A DNA stretch of 52,602 bases, taken from a virus. Its lineage: Duplodnaviria > Caudoviricetes. The stretch spans positions 1 through 52,602 of IMG/VR virus record IMGVR_UViG_3300032287_001223. The stretch is one strand, 5' to 3'. A model generated the notes under the pieces. It ran no database searches, was not told the origin of the DNA, and saw nothing but the letters and a program-made list of their open reading frames with translations. Positions 3,063-52,479 of this stretch are shown here, in pieces (within the stretch, counting starts at the first letter, position 1; every line of letters starts with the position of its first letter). The position numbers were made by a program, and so were the translations under genes.

Positions 3063-5087
3063 ATGACACAGGTGTATCAGGCAGCCGCGCCAGTCGAAGC
3101 AGACATCAGCGCCGTCCAAGCACAGGGCGTGGATAACTCCGACCTGATCGCTATGGGCATCTCTGGTCACATCAATTCTTGCTGGACTCAAGCGAAGATG
3201 GCTAAACAAGACATCACAGAGCGCCTACTCCAGTGCGAGCGCCAGCGGCGTGGTGAATATGATCCAGACAAAGCTATGGACATAGCCAATACTGGCGGAT
3301 CAGACATCTTCATGATGCTGACAGACGTTAAGTGTGCCGCCGCCAAGTCGTGGATTCAGGACGTAATGCTCCAAGCAAACCGTCCTTTTGACCTTGTACC
3401 CGCTCAGGAACCACAGATTCCTCCTGAAGTCCGTCTGTCGATCATCGACTTGGTTCGGACAGAGGCAGAAGATTACGTTCTTGCTGGTCAGGAACTACAC
3501 CCAGAGACATTCCGCAAGCGGATGAACGAAGTCCACGACATGATTTCTATTCGTGTCAAGGAAGAAGCCAAGGCTACCGCAGAGAGAATGGCTCAGGTCA
3601 TCCAAGATCAACTGGATGTTGGTAAGTTCAAGCCTGCCATGCAGGACTTCATTGATGACTTCGTGACGTTCCCCACGGCCATCCTCAAAGGCCCAAGCGT
3701 TCGCCGCAAGAAGCAACTCCAATGGGGGCCAAACTTCATGCCTATCGTTGTGAACGATATGATTCGTGAGGTTTCAAGGGTTTCTCCTTACGACATCTTC
3801 CCAAGCGCCAACTCAATGGGCGTGGATGACGGCTTCCTGATCCAGCGTCACCGTCTGTCGGCTAAGACCTTGGAGTCCATGAAGGGTGTCCCCGGATACT
3901 CGGACGACGAGATAGATCAAGTCATCATCCGTTACGCAAGAACTGGTTACCGGTACAACGAGTTCGGCGACCAACAGCGTGACGACCTCGAAGGCAAGAC
4001 GAATTCCCAAATGCACAACGATCACCTGATCGAAGCACTGGAATTCTGGGGGCCAGTCATGGGCGACCTGCTCATGCAGTGGGGTATGAAGGACGTAGAA
4101 CCCAACAAGGTCTACGAGATCAATGCTTGGCAAGTGGCAAACTTCACAATCAAGGTGGTTCTGAATCCAGATCCACTTGGTGAGCGCCCTTACGAGATCG
4201 CCTCATGGAGAACCATTCCTTCAGCTTTCTGGGGCATGGCTCTTCCTGAGAACATGCGCGATGTGCAAATCATGTGCAACGCCTCTGCTCGCGCACTAGC
4301 GAACAACATGGGTATCGGCTCCGGCCCTCAAGTTGAAGTGGCTGTGGACAGATTGGCTGACGGCGAAGACATTACACAGATGTATCCTTGGAAGATCTGG
4401 CAGACCACATCGGATAAAACTGGTGGCGGGCAGCCGGGTGTTCGCTTCTTTATGCCTGAGATGAAGGCTGCTGAGTTGATGGGCATCTACAACCAGTTCG
4501 CCAAACAAGCGGACGAAGTGACAGGTATCCCAAATTACATCTACGGTTCTGGCTCTGGAGCAAGTGGCGCAGGCCGCACAGCTTCTGGTCTGTCTATGTT
4601 GATGGACAACGCCGCCAAGGGAATCAAGATGGCGGTCGGCACAATCGACGATGTTGTCGTCATGGTCGTCAATCGCTTCTACATTCACAACATGATCTAC
4701 AACCCAGACCCCTACATCAAGGGTGACTTCCGTGTTGTAGCCAAGGGTGCAATGGGATTGATTGCCAAAGAACAGATCCAGGTTCGCCGCAATGAGTTCT
4801 TGAATCTTGTGCTCAGCAACCAGATCGCTCTACAGATTGTTGGCCCAGAAGGTGCTGCTTATCTGTTGCGCGAAACAGCGATGGGCTTACAGATGGATAC
4901 CGACAGATTGGTTCCATCGACAGAGATGATGAAGTTCAAACAAGAACAGATTCAGATGGCAATGCAACAGTTGCAGGCCACAATGCCACAACAACAGATT
5001 GCAGCACCAGAGGCAACAAACCCAGCCGGAGACCAAGCGCCTCCTGCAATGAATACAGTTCAACCCCAACAAGGAGTATCAGCATGA
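3063..5087 (+). CDS. Portal protein
   Basis: 674 aa directly after TerL; ADEVTGIP...RTASGLSML motif and Gln-rich C-terminus typical of podoviral portals. Confidence 0.85.
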   Translation: MTQVYQAAAPVEADISAVQAQGVDNSDLIAMGISGHINSCWTQAKMAKQDITERLLQCERQRRGEYDPDKAMDIANTGGSDIFMMLTDVKCAAAKSWIQDVMLQANRPFDLVPAQEPQIPPEVRLSIIDLVRTEAEDYVLAGQELHPETFRKRMNEVHDMISIRVKEEAKATAERMAQVIQDQLDVGKFKPAMQDFIDDFVTFPTAILKGPSVRRKKQLQWGPNFMPIVVNDMIREVSRVSPYDIFPSANSMGVDDGFLIQRHRLSAKTLESMKGVPGYSDDEIDQVIIRYARTGYRYNEFGDQQRDDLEGKTNSQMHNDHLIEALEFWGPVMGDLLMQWGMKDVEPNKVYEINAWQVANFTIKVVLNPDPLGERPYEIASWRTIPSAFWGMALPENMRDVQIMCNASARALANNMGIGSGPQVEVAVDRLADGEDITQMYPWKIWQTTSDKTGGGQPGVRFFMPEMKAAELMGIYNQFAKQADEVTGIPNYIYGSGSGASGAGRTASGLSMLMDNAAKGIKMAVGTIDDVVVMVVNRFYIHNMIYNPDPYIKGDFRVVAKGAMGLIAKEQIQVRRNEFLNLVLSNQIALQIVGPEGAAYLLRETAMGLQMDTDRLVPSTEMMKFKQEQIQMAMQQLQATMPQQQIAAPEATNPAGDQAPPAMNTVQPQQGVSA

Positions 5088-5353
5088 TGACCAAAAAAGT
5101 TGCCAAGAAAGGCATGATCCCCGCAGGCTACGCCAACGGCGGTAAAGCCATGAAAGAAGAAGGCAAGGGCCACGCCAAGAAAGAAATGGCTGCTTTGAAA
5201 AAAGGCGGCGCTTCCAAGAAGATCATGATGTCCGAAGCCAAAGAGTACGGCATGAAGATGGCGAATGGCGGCAAGGCATTCAAGCCTTGCGCTGGTTGCC
5301 CCATGCCAAAGAAGTGCGCTGCCGCAGGTAAGTGCTTGAAGGGTGGAAAATGA
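5084..5353 (+). CDS. Small Lys/Met-rich basic protein with A(N/K)GG repeats and a Cys cluster
   Basis: AAGGAG RBS, ATGA overlap; YANGG and MANGG motifs; CAGC...C...C. Confidence 0.75.
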   Translation: MMTKKVAKKGMIPAGYANGGKAMKEEGKGHAKKEMAALKKGGASKKIMMSEAKEYGMKMANGGKAFKPCAGCPMPKKCAAAGKCLKGGK

Positions 5354-15653: not shown

Positions 15654-15856
15654 TGAAAGCACTTATTTCTTCTATCGAACCTCGTGAAGCAGGATATAGA
15701 GTGGCGCAAGTTGTAACGAACAACGCTACCTTTCCTGTCGCAGAGCCCGATCTGTTTTGGGTTGACTGTGAAGATAATGTTGTTGCAGATTTATTTTGGT
15801 ATAACCCATCTGACCAACAAATTAAACCTATTTCGCAGCCACCTGAGGGATCTTAA
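15650..15856 (+). CDS. Small tail-fibre assembly-like protein
   Basis: RVAQVV...FPVAEPDLFWVDCED, following a Gly-rich gene. Confidence 0.6.
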   Translation: MMKALISSIEPREAGYRVAQVVTNNATFPVAEPDLFWVDCEDNVVADLFWYNPSDQQIKPISQPPEGS

Positions 15857-16971
15857 TGTGCAATCAACTGTCTCAGTTTACTGTCGATAAATATGTTCAC
15901 CTCAAAGGGTTCCTTGATATTGGAAATTGCAATGAGCTGACTGTTGAACTGAAACGATTGGTTGACGCAAGAGCAACGCATAAAGACACTCAATGCCCAG
16001 CCTCAGAAGCAATTCATGGTGCTATGGTATTTGACAAGCTTCTCGTGGATCTTCTTCCTCACTTTGAGAAGGCGGCAGGCAAGCGGCTTCATCCAACTTA
16101 CAGTTACGCTCGACTATATAAAAAAGGTGAGAAGTTAAAAATTCACACCGACAGAGAGTCTTGCGAGATAAGCGCAACTCTGACGTTGGGTTTTGATGGA
16201 GAAGCATGGCCTATCTATATGGGCGATGAGGGCAAAGAGAACGCATCCAAAATCGTCATGGATGTGGGTGATGTCGTGCTTTATCGTGGAATGGAGAAGC
16301 ATCACTGGAGAAAGAAATTCAAAGGTGAATGGCAAGCACAGGTTTTCTTGCATTACGTCGATGCTGATGGCCCACACAAAGAGTGGAAGTTCGACAAACG
16401 CCCCGGCTTAAACTTACCAGCTACTAGCAACGAGCTGAACTATTGGATGTTCACAGACATCTTAAGTGCAGAAATGTGCGACTCTATTATTTCCTCTTAC
16501 ACAAATTCTGCTGTAAAAAAAGAGCCACCAGTGATAGGGACTGGTGATGGTGAGATAAACAGAGAGATTAGAAACGTAGAGCGTGTCATGCTACCTACAT
16601 ACAAAGATCTTGGCGGGTTGCTTACTGCTGCTGGCTTATCTGCAAACCACCAGTCATTCAAGTTTGATGTCACCCACGCCAATCAAGCAGAATTTCTAAT
16701 CTACCCTGCCGGTGGTAGATACCAATCCCACGTAGATACTTTTCTTGCTCATGGCGATGAGTGTAGAAAGTTAACCGTACTAGCTTTTTTAAATGACGAC
16801 TTTAAGGGCGGTCGGTTTTACTTGCAAAATGGCCACGAAAGAATGTATCCGCCACAAAGCAAGGGAACAGTTTTGGTTTTCCCAAGCTTTGTGATGCACG
16901 GCGTAGAAGACATAGAAGAAGGAATCCGATACTCAGCAGTCTGCTGGATGCTCGGGAAATTTTTTAGATAG
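15856..16971 (+). CDS. Tandem two-domain 2OG-Fe(II) oxygenase (prolyl-4-hydroxylase-like)
   Basis: Domain 1 HTD...HWR...FLHY; domain 2 HVD...RKLT...FPSFVMHGV...RYS. Confidence 0.85.
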   Translation: MCNQLSQFTVDKYVHLKGFLDIGNCNELTVELKRLVDARATHKDTQCPASEAIHGAMVFDKLLVDLLPHFEKAAGKRLHPTYSYARLYKKGEKLKIHTDRESCEISATLTLGFDGEAWPIYMGDEGKENASKIVMDVGDVVLYRGMEKHHWRKKFKGEWQAQVFLHYVDADGPHKEWKFDKRPGLNLPATSNELNYWMFTDILSAEMCDSIISSYTNSAVKKEPPVIGTGDGEINREIRNVERVMLPTYKDLGGLLTAAGLSANHQSFKFDVTHANQAEFLIYPAGGRYQSHVDTFLAHGDECRKLTVLAFLNDDFKGGRFYLQNGHERMYPPQSKGTVLVFPSFVMHGVEDIEEGIRYSAVCWMLGKFFR

Positions 16972-26202: not shown

Positions 26203-29200
26203 ATGACAATAGGTCTTTCGTTAATTGGCGATGAGGACATTGATAGAGAAAATGACTCTCTTTATCTTTCAAAAGATGAAGCTCTAAGAACTGAGGTTCT
26301 TCCTAGATCTTACGGCGGGGACGTAAAACCCAGAACCGCCATCTCTACCCCCTCATCATCGGCTTCAATGCAGCAGACAGAATCTTCTGATCTGTTCTCC
26401 TTGAGTGACCTCATGGGATCGACTGTTCGTCAGCCGTCTACATCGGAGACCCAGACAGCAAAACCCAGCGAGTTGTTCAGCGTCAATGACCTGATGGGCA
26501 TAAAGTCTGCTCCAACAACCACGCCAGTTGAGAAAGCTCCAGCCGAAGACACTGGCGACTTCATGCGAGGAGCTGGCACGGCACTGGCACAAACACCCGC
26601 TCTGGCTTACGGCGCTCTTGGTCTTGTTGGAGCCGCTGGCGAGAAAGCCTTTGGCACTGGCGGGGCAATGTCTTCTCTCAAGAAGTTTGGTCTCGACCAG
26701 TACCAGACAAGGATGAAAGAGATTGGCGCTACAGCCAAAGAGTCTGATGATGTGACCAAGGCTTGGGAAAAAGCCAAGCAGGGCGACATTGGTGCATTGG
26801 CTGATTGGGCGCAGTATGGCATTGGCTATCTCGGTGGGAACATTGTAGAAACTGTCGCAACATCCGCCCTTGGCTCTGCCATTGGCGGATTTACTGCTGG
26901 CCCTGCTGGTGCTGTGGCTGGCGCTGGCGCTGGTGTTGTTGGAAGGCAGGCTGTCCAAGGTGTCGCCAAGAACCTGATTGAAGGCATGGTCGCCAAGGAA
27001 GCTGCACGTATTGCTGAGAAGGCAGGAGTTGAGGTAGCGACAGGTCAGATGCTCAAGGAGGCAACAAAGAATGTCGCCAAGGGTATTGGCTCAAGCATGG
27101 CCTTGGTTGGTTCGAGCCTCATCAAAGAGACTGGCGGTATTTACGGCGAAGCAGAAGAGCAGGCAGCAAAAGAAGGGCGCGAGCTGGACGGAGGAGATCT
27201 TGCAAGGATCTTTGGATCTGGCGTTGTTGCCGGTCTGTCGGAGTTCGCAGTAGATAAGCTTGGCCTTGATGTTGCGGCTGGAAAAATCAAGATCCCCGGA
27301 GGTGGAAGAACTGGCCGCTCCATAATCGGCGGCGCAGCAGGCGTTGGCTTCGAGGGTGGAACAGAACTGTTCCAGACCGCTGTCGAGCGTTTCGGTGCTG
27401 GCAAAGCCTTGACCGGCGAAGATGCCATGAACGAATACATCAATGCTTTTGCATTGGGTGGCTTGGGCGGCGGTACGGTCGGCGCTGCGGTCGGCGCATT
27501 CCGTGACGGCAAGACATCTCCCGACAGAGTTCGACAGATTCTGGATCAGGCTCAGGCCGACATGACATCCGATGATGGTCGTCAGGAACTGTTCGACTCC
27601 ATGTACGACGATCCTAATCTTGGCTCAATCCTTCAAGCCAACAACATTGAGTCAGGCGACGACCCAAGATTCCAAAGCGTAGTCACTAGAGCACTGGCTA
27701 CTCAGCGCATGTTGGTTGACCTTGAGGCTCCAACTCCTGAAGTCAGAGCTGAAACCAGAAAGCAGCGTGAGGCTGACATCCTTGCCGCTTTTGGCGAGAC
27801 AGCATCCACCGCAGTCGGTGGCGATACAGGCGCAATCGAGCCTGTCATCCAGCGAGCCAGCGTAACTCCCAATCTTGAGACCCGCACCCTCGAAGGTGAA
27901 GCTCAGCCAGTGATCCTGCCGGAGACAGCAGGCGGTCAGGCTGGTACGGTCGCTCTGTCGCCTGAAGACTTGGTTGCCAGACAGCAAGGCTTCGAGCCAT
28001 TGATCGGCATCACAACAGACAAAGGCCCAGTCGGGAACAGATTCCCATCACCCCAGGCTGCCGAGACTTTTCTGTTCGGCCCGAAAGACGCAAAGACAGG
28101 ACAGCGCAGCGGTGGCTACGCCCAAACGAACTTGGTTGGACAGGGGCTTGAGGCGCGAATCCGTCAGGGTAAACGCTCCAAAACCGAGGGAGGCGGCACG
28201 TTCTATTTTGTGGAGACCCGCAAGAAGCCAGTAGAGGCAGCTCCTGCGGCAGCTCCCGCTGCTCCGGTGGTAACACCATCTGCTCCGGTAACAACCGCTG
28301 CTGCTCCGGTAGTAACTCCTGCCGCTCCGGCAGTAACGCCAGCCGTTACTCCTGCCGTGCCAGTAACCCCCACAAAAGGCAAGAAGGCTGCTATTCCTGC
28401 GCTCACTCAAGAGGAAGAACAGCAACAGATTCCACTTCGTGTTCGCGCCGAAGAAATAGCGAACGAGCTTGAGACTCTGGGTGGTGACAAAAATTTAATC
28501 AGTGGAATCCGTAGCGTCGTATCCAATAAACGCCGCATTCAAAACAACGATTTTTATGAAGGCAAGTTAGCTGAGCTAAAGGCGCTTAAAGGCGCTGGAG
28601 TGCAAAAAACCACAGAGAAGCGTGGCGTGTCAGACTATCTCTCTGGAAGCAAGAGAGAGCAAGGCCGCTACGACGAATACAAAGGTAATGCAGACATAGG
28701 CCCATTCTTGCAGTCGGCTGACGATGCGATTCAGCAACTGACAACATTCGTCAACAATCTCGGTTATGCGGTTGCTGATGTCAACAATGCAACTCCTGAC
28801 AAACGTGCATTGTTTGCGAAGAATCTCATGTCTCAGATTGCTGGCTCAACAACTAGGATGTTGTTAAAGCGTGAGGCTTTCGACAAGAAGTACAAGAACG
28901 CAAGCCTTGAGCAGAAGAACAAGTCCCTTGTGGATTTGCAGAAAGATCTTGTCGCCGCACAAGAATACATAACCAAACAAGGAGAACCAGATGCCACTCA
29001 AGCAAGGCAAGTCACAGAAGGTGGTGAGCAGCAACGTCAAGGAGCTGGTGAACAAGTTCCAGCGGTCGGGGAAGATCGGGGAGTCAAAGCCGAAGAGCAA
29101 ACAGGCGGCGGTGAAACAGGCGGTGGCGATCAGCCTGTCGAAGGCGGGACTCAACCGCAAGAAGTAAAGCCAGCAGTTGACCCTGTAATGCAGGCTCGTG

Positions 29201-32200
29201 TTAAGGAGCGCATTAACAGAGCAGACGAAGACGGCGGCCTTGACTTTGAGGACGTTGTTAAGCTGAACAAGATGGTTGATGACGGCGACCTTATGGGCGC
29301 AATCAACAGCATGAAGAAGATTGTCGAAAGCAATCTTGGTGCTGGAGCTGGCGCGAAGTACAGCCTAAGCAGAGCACCACAGCCAACCACAACAGGAAGG
29401 GACTTTGCATATGGCAAACTCAAAACCGTTGACGACCTCAACAAAAATGTCAGAGGATACCTTGCAGCACAAGGAATCACAGACAGCTTTACCGCAGCGA
29501 GAGTACCTATCGGCAATCTTGCTGGAAAGATTCCCGGCCTCCCTTCCATGCAACGCATTGCCGATCTGTTCGGAAAGAAGCTCGTATATTTTGCAGTGGA
29601 GAAGGGAAGTGTTGACTTCATAGACGGCGCTGTCCTCAGTGGATCAGACACAATCTTCATCAATGTAAACAGTACCCGACCACACATTCGGGTGTTGGGC
29701 CACGAGATGGTTCATGCTTTGCGGTTCAGTAATAAAGAAATTTATACAGCACTGACAAAGCATTTGTCGCCTTATCTGGATCAGGGTGGCATGAATGCCT
29801 ATCGAGCGCAGCTCAACAAAGAGGGCATGAAAGATCCAGCATTGATTCTGGAAGAAGCTATTGGCGACATCGTTGGAGACAGATTCGGTGAATCCTCCTT
29901 CTGGCAGATGATGGCCGATGAGAATCCAAGTATGTTCACACAGCTTGCAAGAATTGTTGTGGACTTCCTTGATTCAGTAATGAGCAAGATCCGCAGCAAG
30001 CAGACTCTGGACTCCAAGAATCTGTTGACAGATGTCGCCGCCGCACGCCAGGCAATCGTCAGCGTTCTGGCAGACTTTGAACAGAAGCAGCCAACAGCTC
30101 CAGCAAAGCCGACAGGTTTGCCATCCTTCTCTCAGAAGAGGATGGATCTTCCTGCGGAATTCGGCACTCAACCAATACCAGATGGGTATGTTCGCCTATA
30201 CCACCAGACAGATACGGAGTCATTGGATAAGATCGCCAAGGAAGGCTTATCAATTAAGTACGCTAAGGGTATTGAAGGGCCGAGAGCAATCTACGCTGGC
30301 GAGACACCCTTCTATGGCCCAGTAGAAACAAGGCCAACGCTAGAGTTTGTTGTTCCCAAAGATCAGTGGGATGCTCCGTTTGTTCTTCAGGACGTACAGC
30401 CAAATCAAATCATTGCTGCTCACTATCCTTGGCACAGAAGAGTTCGGTATCTTGAAGATGCGGACAATCAAGACGTTCTGCAAAAAGCCTTGGCTGGGGA
30501 ATTTGATAATCTTGAAGGCGACTACAAGCTTGCTGTTGAGTACGTGAAAGATAAGTACGGTAAGCCAGCGGAAGAGGCTGCGCCAACTATGTTCAGCCGC
30601 AAGCCAGAAGGCGAGACCTTCTACTCTGCGATGGAGCGTGGCTTTGAATCTGTCAAGCAAGCATCTATGCCTGCCCAGCAGTGGAAGTCATGGCTCAACT
30701 CGAACAAGGCTCAGCTTGGTATTAAGAATGCTGAGATCGAGTGGACTGGCATCAATGAGTGGCTCGATCTGCAAGAAGGTAAGGTCGAGAAGCAAACTGT
30801 TTTAAACTGGATTGCAGGGAATAAGGTTCAGCTTAACGATATTATCCTTACCGGATCTGGGAGGTATATATCCGATGATGATCTTCGAGATGCGTATGTC
30901 GCAGCTAGTGATGAGTTTATTGAGGATGTAAATTTAAGCAGGCAAGAATTGCTGGCCGAGCTTGGATACCCAGCTGATATGCAGGCATCAGGCCCGCAGC
31001 ATAAAAAACTCACTCTTCCCAATGGCAAGGATTACTTTGAGCTTATTTTGACCGAGCCATCTATTGACCCATATAAGTCAGATGATGACATTCACTTTGG
31101 CGACTTGTCTGACGGCAAGCAGATTGGCTGGATTCGTGGAAACATAAGAAAAGATAAAGACGGAAACAGCGTTTTATTTCTTGAAGAGATACAAAGCCAA
31201 AGGGCGCAAGAGGGTAGAGAACGTGGCTTTGTTGAAAAGATAGAAGTTAAAAGGACTTTGTATGGTCGTTGGCGGGATGCAATTCGGTCTGGCGAGGTTA
31301 AGACAGAGGGAAGAAAGAAGTTTCTAAAGTGGTTTAACACTCAGCCTGAATCTGAAGGTGTCTCAGAAAGTGAGGCCATACAAAAATATCAGTTTTTCTT
31401 ACGGGCTAGACTACCAGAGTCTGCTTTTAATTTGGATGATGTTCCGGTCGCTCCATTTGTCGGAGAAACTAAGTCTTGGGTATCTCTTTTGATGAAAAGA
31501 GCTATCGCATATGCACAGTCAAAAGGCATAGACAGGGTTTCATGGACAACCGGAGACCAGCAGAACGACAGATACAGGTTATCTAGATCCATTGATGAGA
31601 TTTACTATGACCCATACGAGGACGGAAAAACATTTGAGGTGACCGCCTTAAAGGATGGGAATGAGGTAGGCCAAGGCAGTGGTCAGATGGGATTGGAGTC
31701 AATCCGCCGGACGTATGGAAAAGACATAGCCAAGATGATGGTCGATGGTGTCGGTGAGCAAGTTGACGACACCGTTAAAGCTATTCGTGGAGAAAATCTT
31801 GATGCTGGTGGCGCAGGTATGCGCGAGTTCTACAACACCATTGTTCCTTCTGTCGCTAAGTCTATCGTCGGGAAAGATTCGGTCACCGTAATGGAGCTTG
31901 AGGATACGGGACAACAGCTTGGCTTTGTCATACCCGAAAAGCTACAAGAGCAGGTCGCCAATGATGGCTTCCCAATGTTCAGCCGCAAGCGTTACGAAGA
32001 TCAGTTCTCTGATGTCAGCCCTGACACCCGCGAACGTGCGCTGAACAAAGGCTTCTACTCTCCTCCCACAATCAAGGAGAGACTGGATCGCCTCCGTCCA
32101 AACTTCGCAATGCGTATCGTTCAAGGTACGTTCGACAAGTTCCGCTCTGTTCGTGACATCAGTCAGAAAGCCTACCTCATGCTTCGCATGTCGTCTGGTT

Positions 32201-34578
32201 CTCAGGATGGTGCTGTCTCCGCTCTTCTGCACTACGGTCAAGTCTTCAATGATGACGGCGCACTGAATGTGAAGAAGGGGACACAGGGATTGCTGGAGGT
32301 TCTTGATCCTGTCGGCGGAGAGGTTGATCGCTTCCTGCTTTGGATTGCGGCCAACCGTGCGGCGGCTCTGTCGAAGGATGAGCGCGAGCGTTTCTTCAGC
32401 CCAGAAGACATCAAGTCTTTGCGTGGCCTGAACATGGGTACGATGAAGAATGGCAAGTCTCGTCTTGCTGTCTACGCCGAGACCCTGAAGAATATGAACG
32501 AGCTGAACAGATCTGTTCTGGATGTCGCCAGGGACACCGGGTTGATTGATGCCGAAGGGTACAAACGCTTCTCCGCAGACATCTGGTACATCCCGTTCTA
32601 TCGACAGATGGAAGATGACGGCAGCCTGTCGGCAGCCCAGACAAGTTCCGGAGCTGTTGGTCAGTATCTGTCCAAGAAGCTAAAGGGCAGCGAGCGTCCG
32701 CTCAACGACCTGATGGAGAACGTCCTGATGAACTGGACGCACATCCTATCAGCCTCGATGAAGAACCAAGCAGCCGTGGAGACATTGACCTCCGCTACAG
32801 CTATGGGCGACATCGTGACCAAGCTGGAGAGACAAGAGAAGGGCGCTGTCAAGGTTATGGAGAAGGGCAAAGAAACCTTCTACCGCATCGACGACGAGTT
32901 CCTTCTGACATCACTGTCTGCTGTTGCTCAGATGCCCAGCTACGGATGGGGCATGGACATCATGCGTGGCTTTAAAACTACGTTGACTCGCTTTATCTCC
33001 TTGTCTCCCACCTTCAAGATCAACAACTTGATCCGAGATTCGATCCAGTCTATCGGTCTATCTGAACTCAGCAGAAACCCAATAGGCAACGTGATGCAGG
33101 GATGGAGAGCCTACAAGACAGAACGTGCCGAGGCTCTTGCTGGTGGCGGCCTGTTCGCTATGGGCAACGCCTTCGACGGAGATCAGTCCGCATCGGTGAA
33201 GCGCCTGCTCAAGACGGGCGTGAACAAAGCTGACATCTTGGACACACCAGAGAAGGTGGCTTCCTTCTTTGGAAAGATGCAAGACAAGTACGACGAAGTG
33301 AGCGATGCCTCTGAGAATGCCAACCGCCTTGCGCTGTACCAACAACTCCGTGCAAAGGGAGCCTCACATCTTGAGGCATCCTACGCCGCGAGAGATTTGC
33401 AGGACTTCAGCTTGCAAGGTAGCTGGTCTGCCATCCGCTATGCGGCTCAGGTTCTGCCGTACTTCAATGCCAGACTTCAGGGCTTGTATAAGCTGGGTCG
33501 TGATGGACTAGACCCCACCATACAGGTGCTAACAGGCAAAGCTTCAGATACCGAGAGACAGAAAGCGGCAAAGTTTGCTACCGTCACCGGAGCTGTTGTG
33601 GCTGTTGCAATGATCTTGTATCTGTCGCAAAAGGACGATGAGGATTGGAAGAAGCGTGAAGACTGGGATCGTGATGCCTTCTTCTGGTTCAAGATCCCCG
33701 GAACTCAAACAGCCGTTCGGATTCCTAAGCCATTCGAGATGGGTGCAATCGCCACCTTGGTTGAGCGTTTCACAGAACAGATGGCTGATTCCAGTGTTGA
33801 GGGCAAGGTGTTTGCCAAGCGTCTCGGGGCTGTATTCCACGACACTTTTGCCGTCAACCCAATACCACAAGCTATTCGCCCTCTCTACGACATCGCCCGT
33901 AACAAGGACGGCTTCACTGATCGGCCAATCGAAAGCATGGGTATGGAGCGGATCTCTGTTGAGAACAGGGTTAGCCCCGGAACATCTGCCGCTGCCGTGG
34001 CACTTGGAACTGTTAATAGTCTGTTCGCTGAGTTTGCTTCTAAGGCTACCGGCGGGGCTATCAGCACACAGTCTACGCAGCTATCGCCAATTCAGTACGA
34101 CTACTTGCTCAAGGGATACCTTGGCTGGGTCGGAACAGTAATTCAGACGGCATCCAATGTGGCGGCTACTCCATTCAAGGATGGCGCATCGTCACGGTAC
34201 GAACGCATTGATGACTTCTTGGTTGTGGGCAACTATGTCAAGACAGTTCCTCAGTCACAGTCTCGCTATGTCACATCGTTCTATGAGAACGCCAAGGACA
34301 TCGCAACCGCAACATCAGATGTAAGCCACTTCCTGAACTCAGGTCAGCTTGAGAAAGCCAAGGAGGCGTTCGTGGAGAAGAGCGACAAGATTGCCCTAGC
34401 CAAGCTGTACACCAAAGGAACCAACATGATGTCAACCATTGGTAAACAGGTGAGGATAGTGGAAGATGATCCCAAGATGAGTGGCGCAGAGAAGCGGCTT
34501 GAGATTGAAAGACTGCAACAGCTTCGCATCCAGATAGCCAAGGATGTCGAGGACATTCGTATCGCAGCCAAGAAATGA
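26203..34578 (+). CDS. Giant polyvalent / ejection protein (metallopeptidase-like HExxH, ART-like domain, LPD38-like C-terminus)
   Basis: 2791 aa; VLGHEMVH (29701), VRLYHQT...IY...LEF (~30190-30350), LFLEEIQSQ, DWDRDAFFWF...RIPKPFEMG. Confidence 0.85.
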   Translation: MTIGLSLIGDEDIDRENDSLYLSKDEALRTEVLPRSYGGDVKPRTAISTPSSSASMQQTESSDLFSLSDLMGSTVRQPSTSETQTAKPSELFSVNDLMGIKSAPTTTPVEKAPAEDTGDFMRGAGTALAQTPALAYGALGLVGAAGEKAFGTGGAMSSLKKFGLDQYQTRMKEIGATAKESDDVTKAWEKAKQGDIGALADWAQYGIGYLGGNIVETVATSALGSAIGGFTAGPAGAVAGAGAGVVGRQAVQGVAKNLIEGMVAKEAARIAEKAGVEVATGQMLKEATKNVAKGIGSSMALVGSSLIKETGGIYGEAEEQAAKEGRELDGGDLARIFGSGVVAGLSEFAVDKLGLDVAAGKIKIPGGGRTGRSIIGGAAGVGFEGGTELFQTAVERFGAGKALTGEDAMNEYINAFALGGLGGGTVGAAVGAFRDGKTSPDRVRQILDQAQADMTSDDGRQELFDSMYDDPNLGSILQANNIESGDDPRFQSVVTRALATQRMLVDLEAPTPEVRAETRKQREADILAAFGETASTAVGGDTGAIEPVIQRASVTPNLETRTLEGEAQPVILPETAGGQAGTVALSPEDLVARQQGFEPLIGITTDKGPVGNRFPSPQAAETFLFGPKDAKTGQRSGGYAQTNLVGQGLEARIRQGKRSKTEGGGTFYFVETRKKPVEAAPAAAPAAPVVTPSAPVTTAAAPVVTPAAPAVTPAVTPAVPVTPTKGKKAAIPALTQEEEQQQIPLRVRAEEIANELETLGGDKNLISGIRSVVSNKRRIQNNDFYEGKLAELKALKGAGVQKTTEKRGVSDYLSGSKREQGRYDEYKGNADIGPFLQSADDAIQQLTTFVNNLGYAVADVNNATPDKRALFAKNLMSQIAGSTTRMLLKREAFDKKYKNASLEQKNKSLVDLQKDLVAAQEYITKQGEPDATQARQVTEGGEQQRQGAGEQVPAVGEDRGVKAEEQTGGGETGGGDQPVEGGTQPQEVKPAVDPVMQARVKERINRADEDGGLDFEDVVKLNKMVDDGDLMGAINSMKKIVESNLGAGAGAKYSLSRAPQPTTTGRDFAYGKLKTVDDLNKNVRGYLAAQGITDSFTAARVPIGNLAGKIPGLPSMQRIADLFGKKLVYFAVEKGSVDFIDGAVLSGSDTIFINVNSTRPHIRVLGHEMVHALRFSNKEIYTALTKHLSPYLDQGGMNAYRAQLNKEGMKDPALILEEAIGDIVGDRFGESSFWQMMADENPSMFTQLARIVVDFLDSVMSKIRSKQTLDSKNLLTDVAAARQAIVSVLADFEQKQPTAPAKPTGLPSFSQKRMDLPAEFGTQPIPDGYVRLYHQTDTESLDKIAKEGLSIKYAKGIEGPRAIYAGETPFYGPVETRPTLEFVVPKDQWDAPFVLQDVQPNQIIAAHYPWHRRVRYLEDADNQDVLQKALAGEFDNLEGDYKLAVEYVKDKYGKPAEEAAPTMFSRKPEGETFYSAMERGFESVKQASMPAQQWKSWLNSNKAQLGIKNAEIEWTGINEWLDLQEGKVEKQTVLNWIAGNKVQLNDIILTGSGRYISDDDLRDAYVAASDEFIEDVNLSRQELLAELGYPADMQASGPQHKKLTLPNGKDYFELILTEPSIDPYKSDDDIHFGDLSDGKQIGWIRGNIRKDKDGNSVLFLEEIQSQRAQEGRERGFVEKIEVKRTLYGRWRDAIRSGEVKTEGRKKFLKWFNTQPESEGVSESEAIQKYQFFLRARLPESAFNLDDVPVAPFVGETKSWVSLLMKRAIAYAQSKGIDRVSWTTGDQQNDRYRLSRSIDEIYYDPYEDGKTFEVTALKDGNEVGQGSGQMGLESIRRTYGKDIAKMMVDGVGEQVDDTVKAIRGENLDAGGAGMREFYNTIVPSVAKSIVGKDSVTVMELEDTGQQLGFVIPEKLQEQVANDGFPMFSRKRYEDQFSDVSPDTRERALNKGFYSPPTIKERLDRLRPNFAMRIVQGTFDKFRSVRDISQKAYLMLRMSSGSQDGAVSALLHYGQVFNDDGALNVKKGTQGLLEVLDPVGGEVDRFLLWIAANRAAALSKDERERFFSPEDIKSLRGLNMGTMKNGKSRLAVYAETLKNMNELNRSVLDVARDTGLIDAEGYKRFSADIWYIPFYRQMEDDGSLSAAQTSSGAVGQYLSKKLKGSERPLNDLMENVLMNWTHILSASMKNQAAVETLTSATAMGDIVTKLERQEKGAVKVMEKGKETFYRIDDEFLLTSLSAVAQMPSYGWGMDIMRGFKTTLTRFISLSPTFKINNLIRDSIQSIGLSELSRNPIGNVMQGWRAYKTERAEALAGGGLFAMGNAFDGDQSASVKRLLKTGVNKADILDTPEKVASFFGKMQDKYDEVSDASENANRLALYQQLRAKGASHLEASYAARDLQDFSLQGSWSAIRYAAQVLPYFNARLQGLYKLGRDGLDPTIQVLTGKASDTERQKAAKFATVTGAVVAVAMILYLSQKDDEDWKKREDWDRDAFFWFKIPGTQTAVRIPKPFEMGAIATLVERFTEQMADSSVEGKVFAKRLGAVFHDTFAVNPIPQAIRPLYDIARNKDGFTDRPIESMGMERISVENRVSPGTSAAAVALGTVNSLFAEFASKATGGAISTQSTQLSPIQYDYLLKGYLGWVGTVIQTASNVAATPFKDGASSRYERIDDFLVVGNYVKTVPQSQSRYVTSFYENAKDIATATSDVSHFLNSGQLEKAKEAFVEKSDKIALAKLYTKGTNMMSTIGKQVRIVEDDPKMSGAEKRLEIERLQQLRIQIAKDVEDIRIAAKK
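28231..28372 (+). repeat. Degenerate GCTCCGG(T/C)AGTAAC tandem repeats encoding a Pro/Ala/Val/Thr linker
   Basis: APAAAPAAPVVTPSAPVTTAAAPVVTPAAPAVTPAVTP. Confidence 0.7.
28991..29167 (+). CDS. Nested 58-aa basic protein MPLKQGKSQKVVSSNVKEL...KQAVAISLSKAG in the +1 frame of the giant gene
   Basis: AAGGAG RBS upstream of the ATG, TAA at 29165; resembles the phage MPLKKGKS...KQAVAIALS family. Confidence 0.75.
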   Translation: MPLKQGKSQKVVSSNVKELVNKFQRSGKIGESKPKSKQAAVKQAVAISLSKAGLNRKK

Positions 34579-51148: not shown

Positions 51149-52300
51149 TTAAACCTCCACTTTGCTACGTTCGTCAGACTTCCAACCTACGAAGTAGGTG
51201 TCTTGGATGGCCTTGACAGATTTGCCAGCCTTGAGCAACTTCGTTGCATCAAGTAAGAACCGAGTTGACATAACCCGATTGAGCCTTGCCTCAGTGATTC
51301 GTTTACGAATCGCCCAACCCCATGCCAACAGGTCGGGAGCCACTACCTTACGTTCAAAGGTTTGGTCATAGTCAAGGACTATGGTTCCGGCACGGAATCT
51401 GTCCAGTGTCGCTTCGTCGAGTCGCTCACGGCCTGCATAAGTCTGATTTGCTCCAGTACCGAAGGTATTGGCGGCGGCAATACAGACAAAATCGGGGTGA
51501 CGCTTCACCACCGAAGCATTCTTACGAATGGGGAGGAAAAACGAACCGTTAGCTAAAGCTTGGTTGACAAACAGCAATGTATTGCTGTCAGCGGCATCGA
51601 TCTCATCGAACAGGAAAACACCGCCTTCTTCGTACATTTTCACGAAGTCACTGGACAGATACTGGAAAGCACCACCGTCAGAGGGAATCAACCAGCCCTG
51701 AAGGGCTGACTCTGACATTCCGGCGGTACAGGACACCGAAGCAAAGGGTCTACCAAGAGCTTCAGCTACTTGGTGGGCTAAGTGAGTCTTGCCGGAACCG
51801 GCAGGGCCGACGAGCAGAATATTCAAGCCACAGGATGCTGAAAGCAATACGTCCTTGAATTCGGGGCGAGTGTGACCTTCCACTTTGTGGGCTGAACCGT
51901 CAGGTCGAATGATCTCGATCTTGACCACTGGACTATCGTCCATTGCTTTTTTGACCTCTGTCATGACAATCTGTCGGACAGTGGCTTCATCTACTGTCGG
52001 AGACAGTAATTTACGGAGAGCGTCGAGGGCATCAGTGTCTGATGCTTTGGGAGCCGAAGGCTTGGAGGCAGGAGGCATAGGGCGATTTTCCTCAGTCATT
52101 GCAACCCCTTTGGGGTTTACGGTTGGGAGACCATTGGCGATGGCCTCGGAGATCTGACCTTCAGAGAAGGTCAAGAGAAGCTTGTCGATCAAGTCCAATT
52201 TTTGGACAGTCTCGAAGTTGAAACCTACGGTTCCACCGTTGAGGTGACGAAAAATCCACAGGATTTCGGGCTTGGAGAGGGAGACGAGTGAGTCACGCAT
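51149..52300 (-). CDS. MoxR/CbbQ-like AAA+ ATPase
   Basis: AAAGGA RBS at ATG 52300; GPAGSGKT, FLFDEIDAAD, AAANTFG, LDEATLDRF. Confidence 0.9.
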   Translation of the reverse strand: MRDSLVSLSKPEILWIFRHLNGGTVGFNFETVQKLDLIDKLLLTFSEGQISEAIANGLPTVNPKGVAMTEENRPMPPASKPSAPKASDTDALDALRKLLSPTVDEATVRQIVMTEVKKAMDDSPVVKIEIIRPDGSAHKVEGHTRPEFKDVLLSASCGLNILLVGPAGSGKTHLAHQVAEALGRPFASVSCTAGMSESALQGWLIPSDGGAFQYLSSDFVKMYEEGGVFLFDEIDAADSNTLLFVNQALANGSFFLPIRKNASVVKRHPDFVCIAAANTFGTGANQTYAGRERLDEATLDRFRAGTIVLDYDQTFERKVVAPDLLAWGWAIRKRITEARLNRVMSTRFLLDATKLLKAGKSVKAIQDTYFVGWKSDERSKVEV

Positions 52301-52479
52301 GGGATTCCTTTCGAATGCAGTGAGTTGCGAATCAGCGGCAAAGCCGCTAAAGACAGGACAGAGCGTCCAGTGCATAACAGTCAGAGACTGCCATGCCCTT
52401 GAAACTCGAAGAGTTATTGACCGCCGATAACGTCATCACGACAGATCGGGGTTTATTTGTAAAGGGATAAACCCTTTAC
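52301..52479 (-). ncRNA. Hairpin-dense untranslated leader of the early operon (continues through the junction to about 205)
   Basis: About ten short stems in roughly 380 nt with no credible ORF. Confidence 0.45.

Follow-up and report, generated by a model that had tools for sequence, protein, structure and literature searches.

Classic overlapping genes include those of phage phiX174, and genes embedded entirely within others are also already known. Among the closest described systems to the one examined here is Rz1 within Rz of phage lambda (Kongari et al. 2018, PMC6139136), in which a larger gene likewise contains the whole of a small one that is read from the same strand in another frame, carries its own Shine-Dalgarno (SD) sequence, and is routinely missed by gene callers. 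In that survey, 182 of 528 two-component spanin systems have the o-subunit gene embedded in the i-subunit gene, often unannotated; the class also includes 'overlapped' and 'separated' architectures, and no family is reported with both the embedded arrangement and another (PMC6139136). Here we analyse a complete phage genome of 52,602 bp with direct terminal repeats (IMG/VR record IMGVR_UViG_3300032287_001223; this whole stretch is referred to below as the window), in which a gene for a 58-residue basic protein lies in the +1 frame of a giant gene encoding a polyvalent-type virion protein.

The resemblance to Rz1 is one of layout. Rz and Rz1 are obligate partners in a fixed pairing, whereas the small gene considered here belongs to a family that is free-standing in bacteria and phages and is nested in at least four unrelated giant virion-protein hosts. 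The family spans free, 3'-overlapped (with a portal gene) and embedded states, which no spanin family does in the text of the survey, and the overlapped part of its host is a predicted disordered spacer, not a functional domain as in Rz/Rz1 (PMC6139136). A second point of comparison is viral overprinting (reviewed in PMC8227390), which shares with this locus the production of two proteins from one stretch, asymmetric selection, and the pairing of an ordered with a disordered partner. In overprinting, however, a new, short and often disordered protein is born within an old gene, while here the short protein appears to be old and folded and the long reading new and disordered. As for the host, LPD38 is listed by Iyer et al. 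(2017) among the domains of phage polyvalent proteins (PMC5512222), and another host of the nested gene carries MuF_C; a second gene hidden in a linker is not described in the text of that paper. More generally, we found no description of a gene hidden in a polyvalent protein in the literature searched. Embedded genes as such are familiar from Rz/Rz1; an old free-standing gene nested in the linker of a polyvalent protein appears to be new.

The nested gene and its conservation

The small open reading frame (ORF) runs from an ATG to a TAA over 58 codons and is contained whole within the longer same-strand ORF, whose codons begin one base earlier, so that the small ORF occupies the +1 frame (coordinates in Table 1). 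An SD-like AAGGAG stands 6 nt before the ATG, within the giant coding sequence, and an in-frame TAA 18 nt upstream of the ATG should shut the small frame to ribosomes coming from upstream. The two readings of these bases are opposite in charge: the small protein contains 15 Lys and Arg against 2 Asp and Glu residues (isoelectric point, pI, 11.0), and the giant-frame reading, a Gly/Gln/Glu-rich spacer of 59 residues, contains 12 Asp and Glu against 4 Lys and Arg (pI 4.1). A first-pass annotation made from the letters alone had described a complete ORF with start and stop in the +1 frame of an 8.4-kb ORF, one sequence encoding both a basic protein and an acidic linker; the coordinates, the frame and the giant-frame reading are all as it gave them, and the two pI values agree with its account of the products. 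It had also expected gene callers to miss the nested ORF, and indeed the source gene calls appear to hold the giant and not the small ORF. Polyvalent linkers can accordingly hide conserved genes that standard callers skip, in which case phage proteomes and counts of 'accessory' genes are underestimated.

Structure prediction separates the two readings in the same way. The AlphaFold2 model of the small protein, built on an alignment of 126 relatives, has a mean predicted local distance difference test score (pLDDT) of 89.4, with helices at residues 9-26 and 37-51 and a short hairpin between them. For a 269-residue fragment of the giant protein (14 sequences), the overlap, at fragment residues 61-119, has a pLDDT of 24-33 and no secondary structure, and the helical domain directly downstream reaches 66-84. 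These models support the view that the overlap, read in the giant frame, is an acidic disordered coil, in keeping with the featureless acidic linker that the annotation had described; within the giant protein it lies between a hypervariable region and the conserved helical domain. A fold search of the PDB with the small protein returned no match at E <= 0.001, and helical-hairpin look-alikes such as the N-terminal region of EF-Ts (template modelling score ~0.5) were dismissed; in BFVD only uncharacterised relatives were found, at E >= 0.015.

The arrangement recurs in about 28 further contigs. Of the best 80 viral loci for the small gene, eight are nested (L001, L002, L003, L006, L041, L044, L048 and L049), within ORFs of 2.4 to more than 7.8 kb and in the relative frame common to all nested loci. 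The nested segment is shared at the protein level by 27 further LPD38 giants, and an alignment search with 28 LPD38 giants returned 28 loci (L085 being the same contig as L001), 17 of which hold the nested gene, each with an ATG, a GGAG-type SD, an intact stop and a giant frame open across it. Of the 11 loci without it, L083, L093, L094 and L098 stop short of the region, L108-L110 are remote partial matches, and L097, L101, L106 and L107, at 49-59% identity, cover the region but do not contain the gene. All five metagenome loci are nested, four with complete copies and one with a cut copy, although one of them, being equal in length to a viral contig, may be the same record. A search of the phage collection at the DNA level with window positions 28000-30200 gave zero matches.

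In total, 31 nested copies with 16 distinct upstream strings were compared; they are often close relatives, amounting to 19-20 distinct sequences in about four giant-gene groups, and the counts are not of independent events. Their start codon is ATG in 28 and GTG in three, and an SD core (GGAG, GAGG or AGGA) is present at -17 to -4 in 31 of 31, against 12.6% of positions in the giant ORF. The stop is kept in every copy not cut by a contig end, and the 19 distinct complete nested proteins are 56-68 residues long. Start, ribosome-binding site and frame are hence preserved in related giants, the property on which the annotation had staked its interpretation.

We consider this a real dual-coding overlap, in which an older gene is read through as a spacer by the giant frame, and place the probability of this reading at roughly 0.85. 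On this account the late mRNA of the giant gene would contain a second, interior ribosome-binding site at giant codon 930, with AAGGAG standing 6 nt before an ATG, and ribosomes initiating there would read the +1 frame to yield a strongly basic two-helix protein of 58 residues. Ribosomes already travelling along the giant gene would read the same 177 bases as an acidic, disordered Gly/Gln/Glu-rich spacer joining the N-terminal part to the downstream, HExxH-containing part, and the giant reading would be kept merely stop-free and hydrophilic through synonymous codon choice in the small gene. Both the internal initiation and the late timing are inferred. A sigma-70 scan of positions 28300-29500 for an internal promoter found one weak site (28796-28824), where 0.5 were expected from shuffles, and hence no excess.

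Selection on the two frames and rival accounts

Frame-specific selection was compared among eight distinct nested copies over 51 codons, using the Nei-Gojobori ratio of nonsynonymous to synonymous substitution (dN/dS), as the annotation had suggested. Pairwise differences fall at small-frame codon positions 1, 2 and 3 in the numbers 422, 311 and 599. All 28 pairs have a small-frame dN/dS between 0 and 0.58, and all 27 computable pairs a giant-frame dN/dS of 1.19-6.10, values that are to be taken as comparative and not absolute, because the method carries a bias where frames overlap. In every pair the small frame gives a higher protein identity than the giant frame; in the comparison of L044 with L048, for example, the small protein is identical despite a proportion of synonymous differences (pS) of 0.18, and the giant frame is 86% identical. 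Together these results show that purifying selection acts on the small protein but not on the amino acids encoded in the giant frame.

What does seem to be maintained in the giant frame is that it stays open. In none of 70 free copies of the gene is the frame equivalent to the giant one open; over its first 50 codons it contains 3.97 stops on average. Moreover, when the window's small ORF was resampled synonymously with the phage's codon usage, the giant frame was open in only 8 of 20,000 trials. The means by which stops are avoided can be read from third positions of the small frame, where T occurs at 4 of 988 sites in the 19 distinct nested copies (0.4%; zero in the window's copy) versus 827 of 3640 in free copies, and G occupies 517 of the 988. 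Since the small third position is the giant first position, scarcity of T removes stops together with Phe, Tyr, Cys, Trp, Leu and Ser codons, and favours Gly, Glu, Asp, Ala and Val. The synonymous sites of the small gene thus do double duty, their G-rich third positions giving Gly, Glu and Asp in the giant frame, and the giant frame would appear to be selected for openness and hydrophilicity and not for any particular sequence.

Several points weigh against the dual-coding reading. No RNA sequencing run containing the stretch is listed; one DNA run contains all of it, and may be its source, and others contain small shares. Internal initiation within a heavily translated ORF may be inefficient. 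The nested gene is also dispensable for this virion design, given that two complete relatives without it (giant identity 49% and 59%) contain no copy anywhere (0 of 5 records, E <= 1). To these must be added the bias of the dN/dS method and the close relatedness of many nested copies mentioned above, and, finally, one protein record (P0053, 785 residues) that fuses the N-terminal part of a related giant to the small protein in a single frame and terminates at the stop of the latter.

This last record is what would be expected if the small frame were expressed as a fused product, a +1 shift (by the ribosome or through an indel in the DNA) upstream of the cassette yielding the N-terminal ~930 residues plus a basic domain with no start of its own. 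At some loci the small frame is indeed open for 87-282 nt upstream of the start. In the window, L006 and L044, by contrast, the small frame is interrupted by a stop only 15-18 nt ahead of the start; moreover, the start codon and SD core are kept in 31 of 31 nested copies, conservation begins at the SD and not before it, and free homologues open with the same Met-Pro-Leu. P0053 itself is a single record, and a sequencing indel would look alike, so that it may reflect a natural variant in which the giant is frameshifted or split, or else an assembly indel; its contig was not among the five metagenome loci returned (best 72% identity). We regard fusion as improbable.

It could also be supposed that the small ORF is a decaying relic, a free gene recently swallowed and now silent, left intact by the shortness of the time elapsed or by constraint on the giant frame, and the relatives without the gene do show that designs lacking it are viable. 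Against so recent an event, protein identity between nested copies has fallen as low as 55-60%, and pS reaches 0.67, yet start, SD, stop and the invariant residues of the family are all retained. Neither does giant-frame constraint account for the pattern, since it is mainly at synonymous sites of the small frame that changes have accumulated, the giant frame being free to change, the opposite of what such constraint would produce. A control is available in the same giant gene, where an alternative-frame ORF for 167 residues in the LPD38 region (33638-34141, plus strand) contains 1-6 stops in 19 of 21 relatives; it is on this ground a chance ORF, and it decays where the nested gene does not. 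The frame-specific substitution pattern thus largely refutes a relic, which we consider very improbable.

Free relatives and the origin of the overlap

The small protein belongs to the family phrog_2423 (E = 7.7e-10, residues 1-58 on profile positions 1-43 of 52). A search with the 58-residue peptide of a collection of 5.8 billion proteins recovered 23 small homologues of 47-91 residues, across which M1, P2, L3, S13, N15, Q43, A44 and A46 are invariant, and a profile of homologues extended the family to 2246 representative clusters at E <= 1e-3 (248 at E <= 1e-10), mostly of 55-200 residues. Among the 150 clusters listed, lengths range from 55 to 507 residues and the domain is N-terminal in nearly all. 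All of the clusters returned for the small protein in the Atlas are labelled 'hypothetical protein', and in the literature searched we found no description of the family, nor any paper mentioning DUF6496. The large and uncharacterised family is common to Betaproteobacteria and their likely phages, and the nested copies provide an unusually strong argument that it has a function in phages.

The annotation had called the peptide 'DUF6496-like', a claim that holds only indirectly. The window's peptide does not reach the gathering score of DUF6496 (PF20106, 24 bits) and has no match to it at E <= 1, nor is there one in a six-frame search of the window at E <= 10 or for any of ten bacterial copies at E <= 1. 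Three of 24 close homologues match below threshold (best 0.064), and among the wider, profile-found relatives 14 of 126 match at E <= 0.01 (best 3.4e-7). In the Atlas, one cluster close to the query carries DUF6496 on 17% of its members, and DUF6496 proteins resemble the nested protein in their small size. The tie is accordingly supported indirectly, and for the window's peptide would hold by transitivity only.

The further expectation that the family is widespread and usually stand-alone is borne out. The small gene is free of any long overlapping ORF at 72 of the best 80 viral loci, and at 31 or more of these it is preceded by an ORF for at least 688 residues ending no more than 19 nt from the small start, mostly with an 11-nt overlap. 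In L024, whose free copy matches phrog_2423 at 6.3e-10, this upstream ORF is a portal gene (phrog_1216), and in the deposited annotation of phage DSL-LC04 a portal likewise precedes the small gene, which is labelled 'hypothetical protein'. Portal-sized ORFs overlap the small gene by 26-41 nt in L009 and L038, so that, at the loci L024 3633-6258, L009 3654-6300 and L038 3861-6174, free copies start within the 3' end of a portal ORF by 11-41 nt. From the coordinates, the portal in the common 11-nt overlap stands in the same frame relative to the small gene as the giant does in the window. One gene family can thus be traced through free, end-overlapped and fully embedded states. In the window itself no second, free copy was found, the search recovering the nested copy at 1e-33.

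In bacterial genomes, free copies of 50-133 residues, mostly 58-69, were found at 80 loci, overwhelmingly labelled as Betaproteobacteria and including complete chromosomes, in two of which the small gene is flanked by housekeeping genes and not by prophage genes. Three bacterial contigs (L155, L167, L184) contain a free copy covered by a same-strand, alternative-frame ORF of 367-405 codons; these may be chance ORFs of GC-rich genomes.

Because free copies of the small gene are widespread, both among phages and on betaproteobacterial chromosomes, we take it to be the older and more constrained partner, and the giant-frame reading, which is limited to nested loci and stop-ridden elsewhere, is probably the younger frame. 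The nested frame is consequently neither the younger nor the taxonomically restricted one, as it would be in a de novo overprinted gene. The converse history, in which the small protein arose de novo in a giant linker and was later freed to give stand-alone genes, receives some encouragement from the interleaving of nested and free copies in the tree described below, which, being unrooted, does not give the direction. Free copies, however, are far more numerous and diverse, occur also among housekeeping genes in bacterial chromosomes, and hold about four stops in the giant-equivalent frame; in addition, the small protein is confidently folded in prediction and the giant-frame reading disordered, and it is the younger of two overlapping frames that tends to be the disordered one (Rancurel et al., as cited in PMC6139136). 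Birth within the giant gene is hence the less likely direction, and as an explanation of the locus it is very unlikely. If the opposite direction is correct, as the dual-coding account supposes, the locus offers a clean and well-replicated natural example of overprinting in reverse, where a younger frame that has only to be open and disordered tolerates within it an older gene whose product folds.

The tree comprises 88 copies (17 nested, 71 free) over 60 columns, has many open forks and is unrooted; it was built from the first 60 residues, with L062 left out because its match starts at residue 10, and with eight of the 17 extra nested copies of the LPD38 group included. Fifteen nested copies fall in a well-supported clade of 26 rows, interleaved with 11 free copies, and nested copies from LPD38 giants group with those from the unrelated giants of L006, L044 and L048. 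The change between nested and free labels must have occurred at least twice, and most parsimoniously four times.

The giants themselves fall by BLAST into at least four groups: the window with L001 (LPD38), L002 with L003 (DarB-like, phrog_10089), L006 with L041, L044 and L048, and L049 (MuF_C). Similarity across groups is essentially limited to the cassette, with the exceptions that the L002/L003 and L006/L041/L044/L048 groups share an N-terminal domain and a weaker C-terminal match, and that one distant domain precedes the cassette in L049 but follows it in the window. Among the LPD38 giants, four unalignable types of sequence occur immediately ahead of the SD, and insertions of about 80-90 residues follow directly after the small stop in L095 (12275-13081) and L087 (8866-9672). 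Conservation therefore starts at the SD and ends at the stop; on this sequence evidence the linker is an indel hotspot in which the cassette appears as a fixed boundary. Two of the relatives that lack the gene, L097 and L107, have a weak giant-frame match (36% identity over residues 934-1049). They contain a different acidic linker at the same place (L107 13178-13600, L097 1970-2392), with a +1-frame ORF that terminates near the corresponding position, ahead of the conserved downstream domain. This ORF of ~50 residues was considered as a family member and rejected, having no family similarity and no match in a profile search at E <= 1.

The wide free distribution, the stops in free copies, the relatives without the gene and the cassette-like boundaries together suggest an existing gene placed into, or exchanged between, giant linkers. 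Most likely, a stop-free cassette would have entered linkers prone to recombination, either by insertion or by recombinational exchange. The annotation had supposed that the giant protein absorbed an intact gene and reads through it as a spacer. The spacer reading is supported; 'absorbed' is a statement about origin, and fusion of flanking genes would seem to fit no better than the insertion of the gene into a linker already present, or than the passing of a ready-made cassette from one giant gene to another. As for the notion that the conserved island is an RNA structure, packaging or regulatory site with no second protein, nothing specific favours it beyond the presence of a conserved island in a variable linker, and the three-base periodicity, the kept ATG or GTG and stop, and the homology to free protein-coding genes are signatures of coding that leave it hardly credible.

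Possible function, the giant protein and other features

Our best guess is that the small protein is a head-associated or nucleic-acid-binding accessory protein, a suggestion that we offer tentatively because free copies lie between portal and capsid genes and because two relatives carry histone-H1-like tails. These tails, on two of 126 relatives, match Pfam HC2 (histone H1-like nucleoprotein; best 2.4e-08) and hint at nucleic-acid binding by some family members.

A bolder scheme, which on present evidence we think doubtful, would treat the 58-codon gene with its SD as a portable, 'read-through-proof' cassette that has been purged of T and has spread into at least four giant lineages, coupling synthesis of the two proteins, with the spacer perhaps a docking site. 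If this were true, recombination could set the T-purged cassette, correctly phased, into disordered linkers of giant proteins, ejected or virion-borne, that are unrelated to one another, and leave these proteins unbroken, the synthesis of a host-derived (betaproteobacterial) small basic protein would be tied to that of the giant protein, and the acidic spacer, of opposite net charge, might dock the small protein for a ride into the capsid or the next host.

The giant protein matches phrog_18222 at 1.5e-181 and contains a C-terminal LPD38 domain (Pfam, 2.4e-33, residues 2479-2660). As a giant multidomain protein with a polyvalent-associated domain (PF18857, present in 27 of 27 relatives) it is a phage polyvalent protein. 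Its upstream neighbours match phrog_511 (internal virion protein) and phrog_8003 (virion structural protein), within a podovirus-like late module that includes terminase, portal and major head protein genes, and this neighbourhood speaks for its putative packaging in the virion and delivery to the host. Downstream of the linker stands an HExxH motif, the mark of zinc peptidases, in which H1167, E1168 and H1171 are invariant in 28 giants; no family match was obtained for the domain containing it.

Table 1 Features of the nested gene and its giant host in the window
Feature	Coordinates	Strand	Remarks
Nested gene, 58-residue basic protein, phrog_2423 family (DUF6496-related)	28991..29167	+	+1 frame of the giant gene; ATG at 28991, TAA ending at 29167
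Shine-Dalgarno-like AAGGAG	28979..28984	+	Within the giant coding sequence
In-frame TAA of the small frame	28970..28972	+	Open stretch from 28973
Acidic Gly/Gln/Glu-rich spacer, same bases in the giant frame	28990..29166	+	Giant-frame codon begins at 28990
Giant gene, polyvalent-type virion protein, C-terminal LPD38	26203..34578	+	2791 residues; late/structural module
LPD38 domain of the giant protein	33637..34182	+
HEMVH (HExxH) motif	29701..29715	+	Downstream of the linker

Elsewhere in the window, an 89-residue Lys/Gly-rich basic protein (5084-5353, plus strand) was considered as a further member of the small-protein family and rejected, its best E-value against the family or the C-terminal extensions of free copies being 0.041. 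Its start overlaps the portal stop as ATGA, at the site where free family copies sit in other phages. Two genes have an auxiliary appearance: one at 15856-16971 (plus strand) encodes a protein matching ferrochelatase-labelled phrogs together with 2OG-Fe(II) oxygenase, and one at 51149-52375 (minus strand) an ATPase labelled 'porphyrin biosynthesis' (phrog_249).

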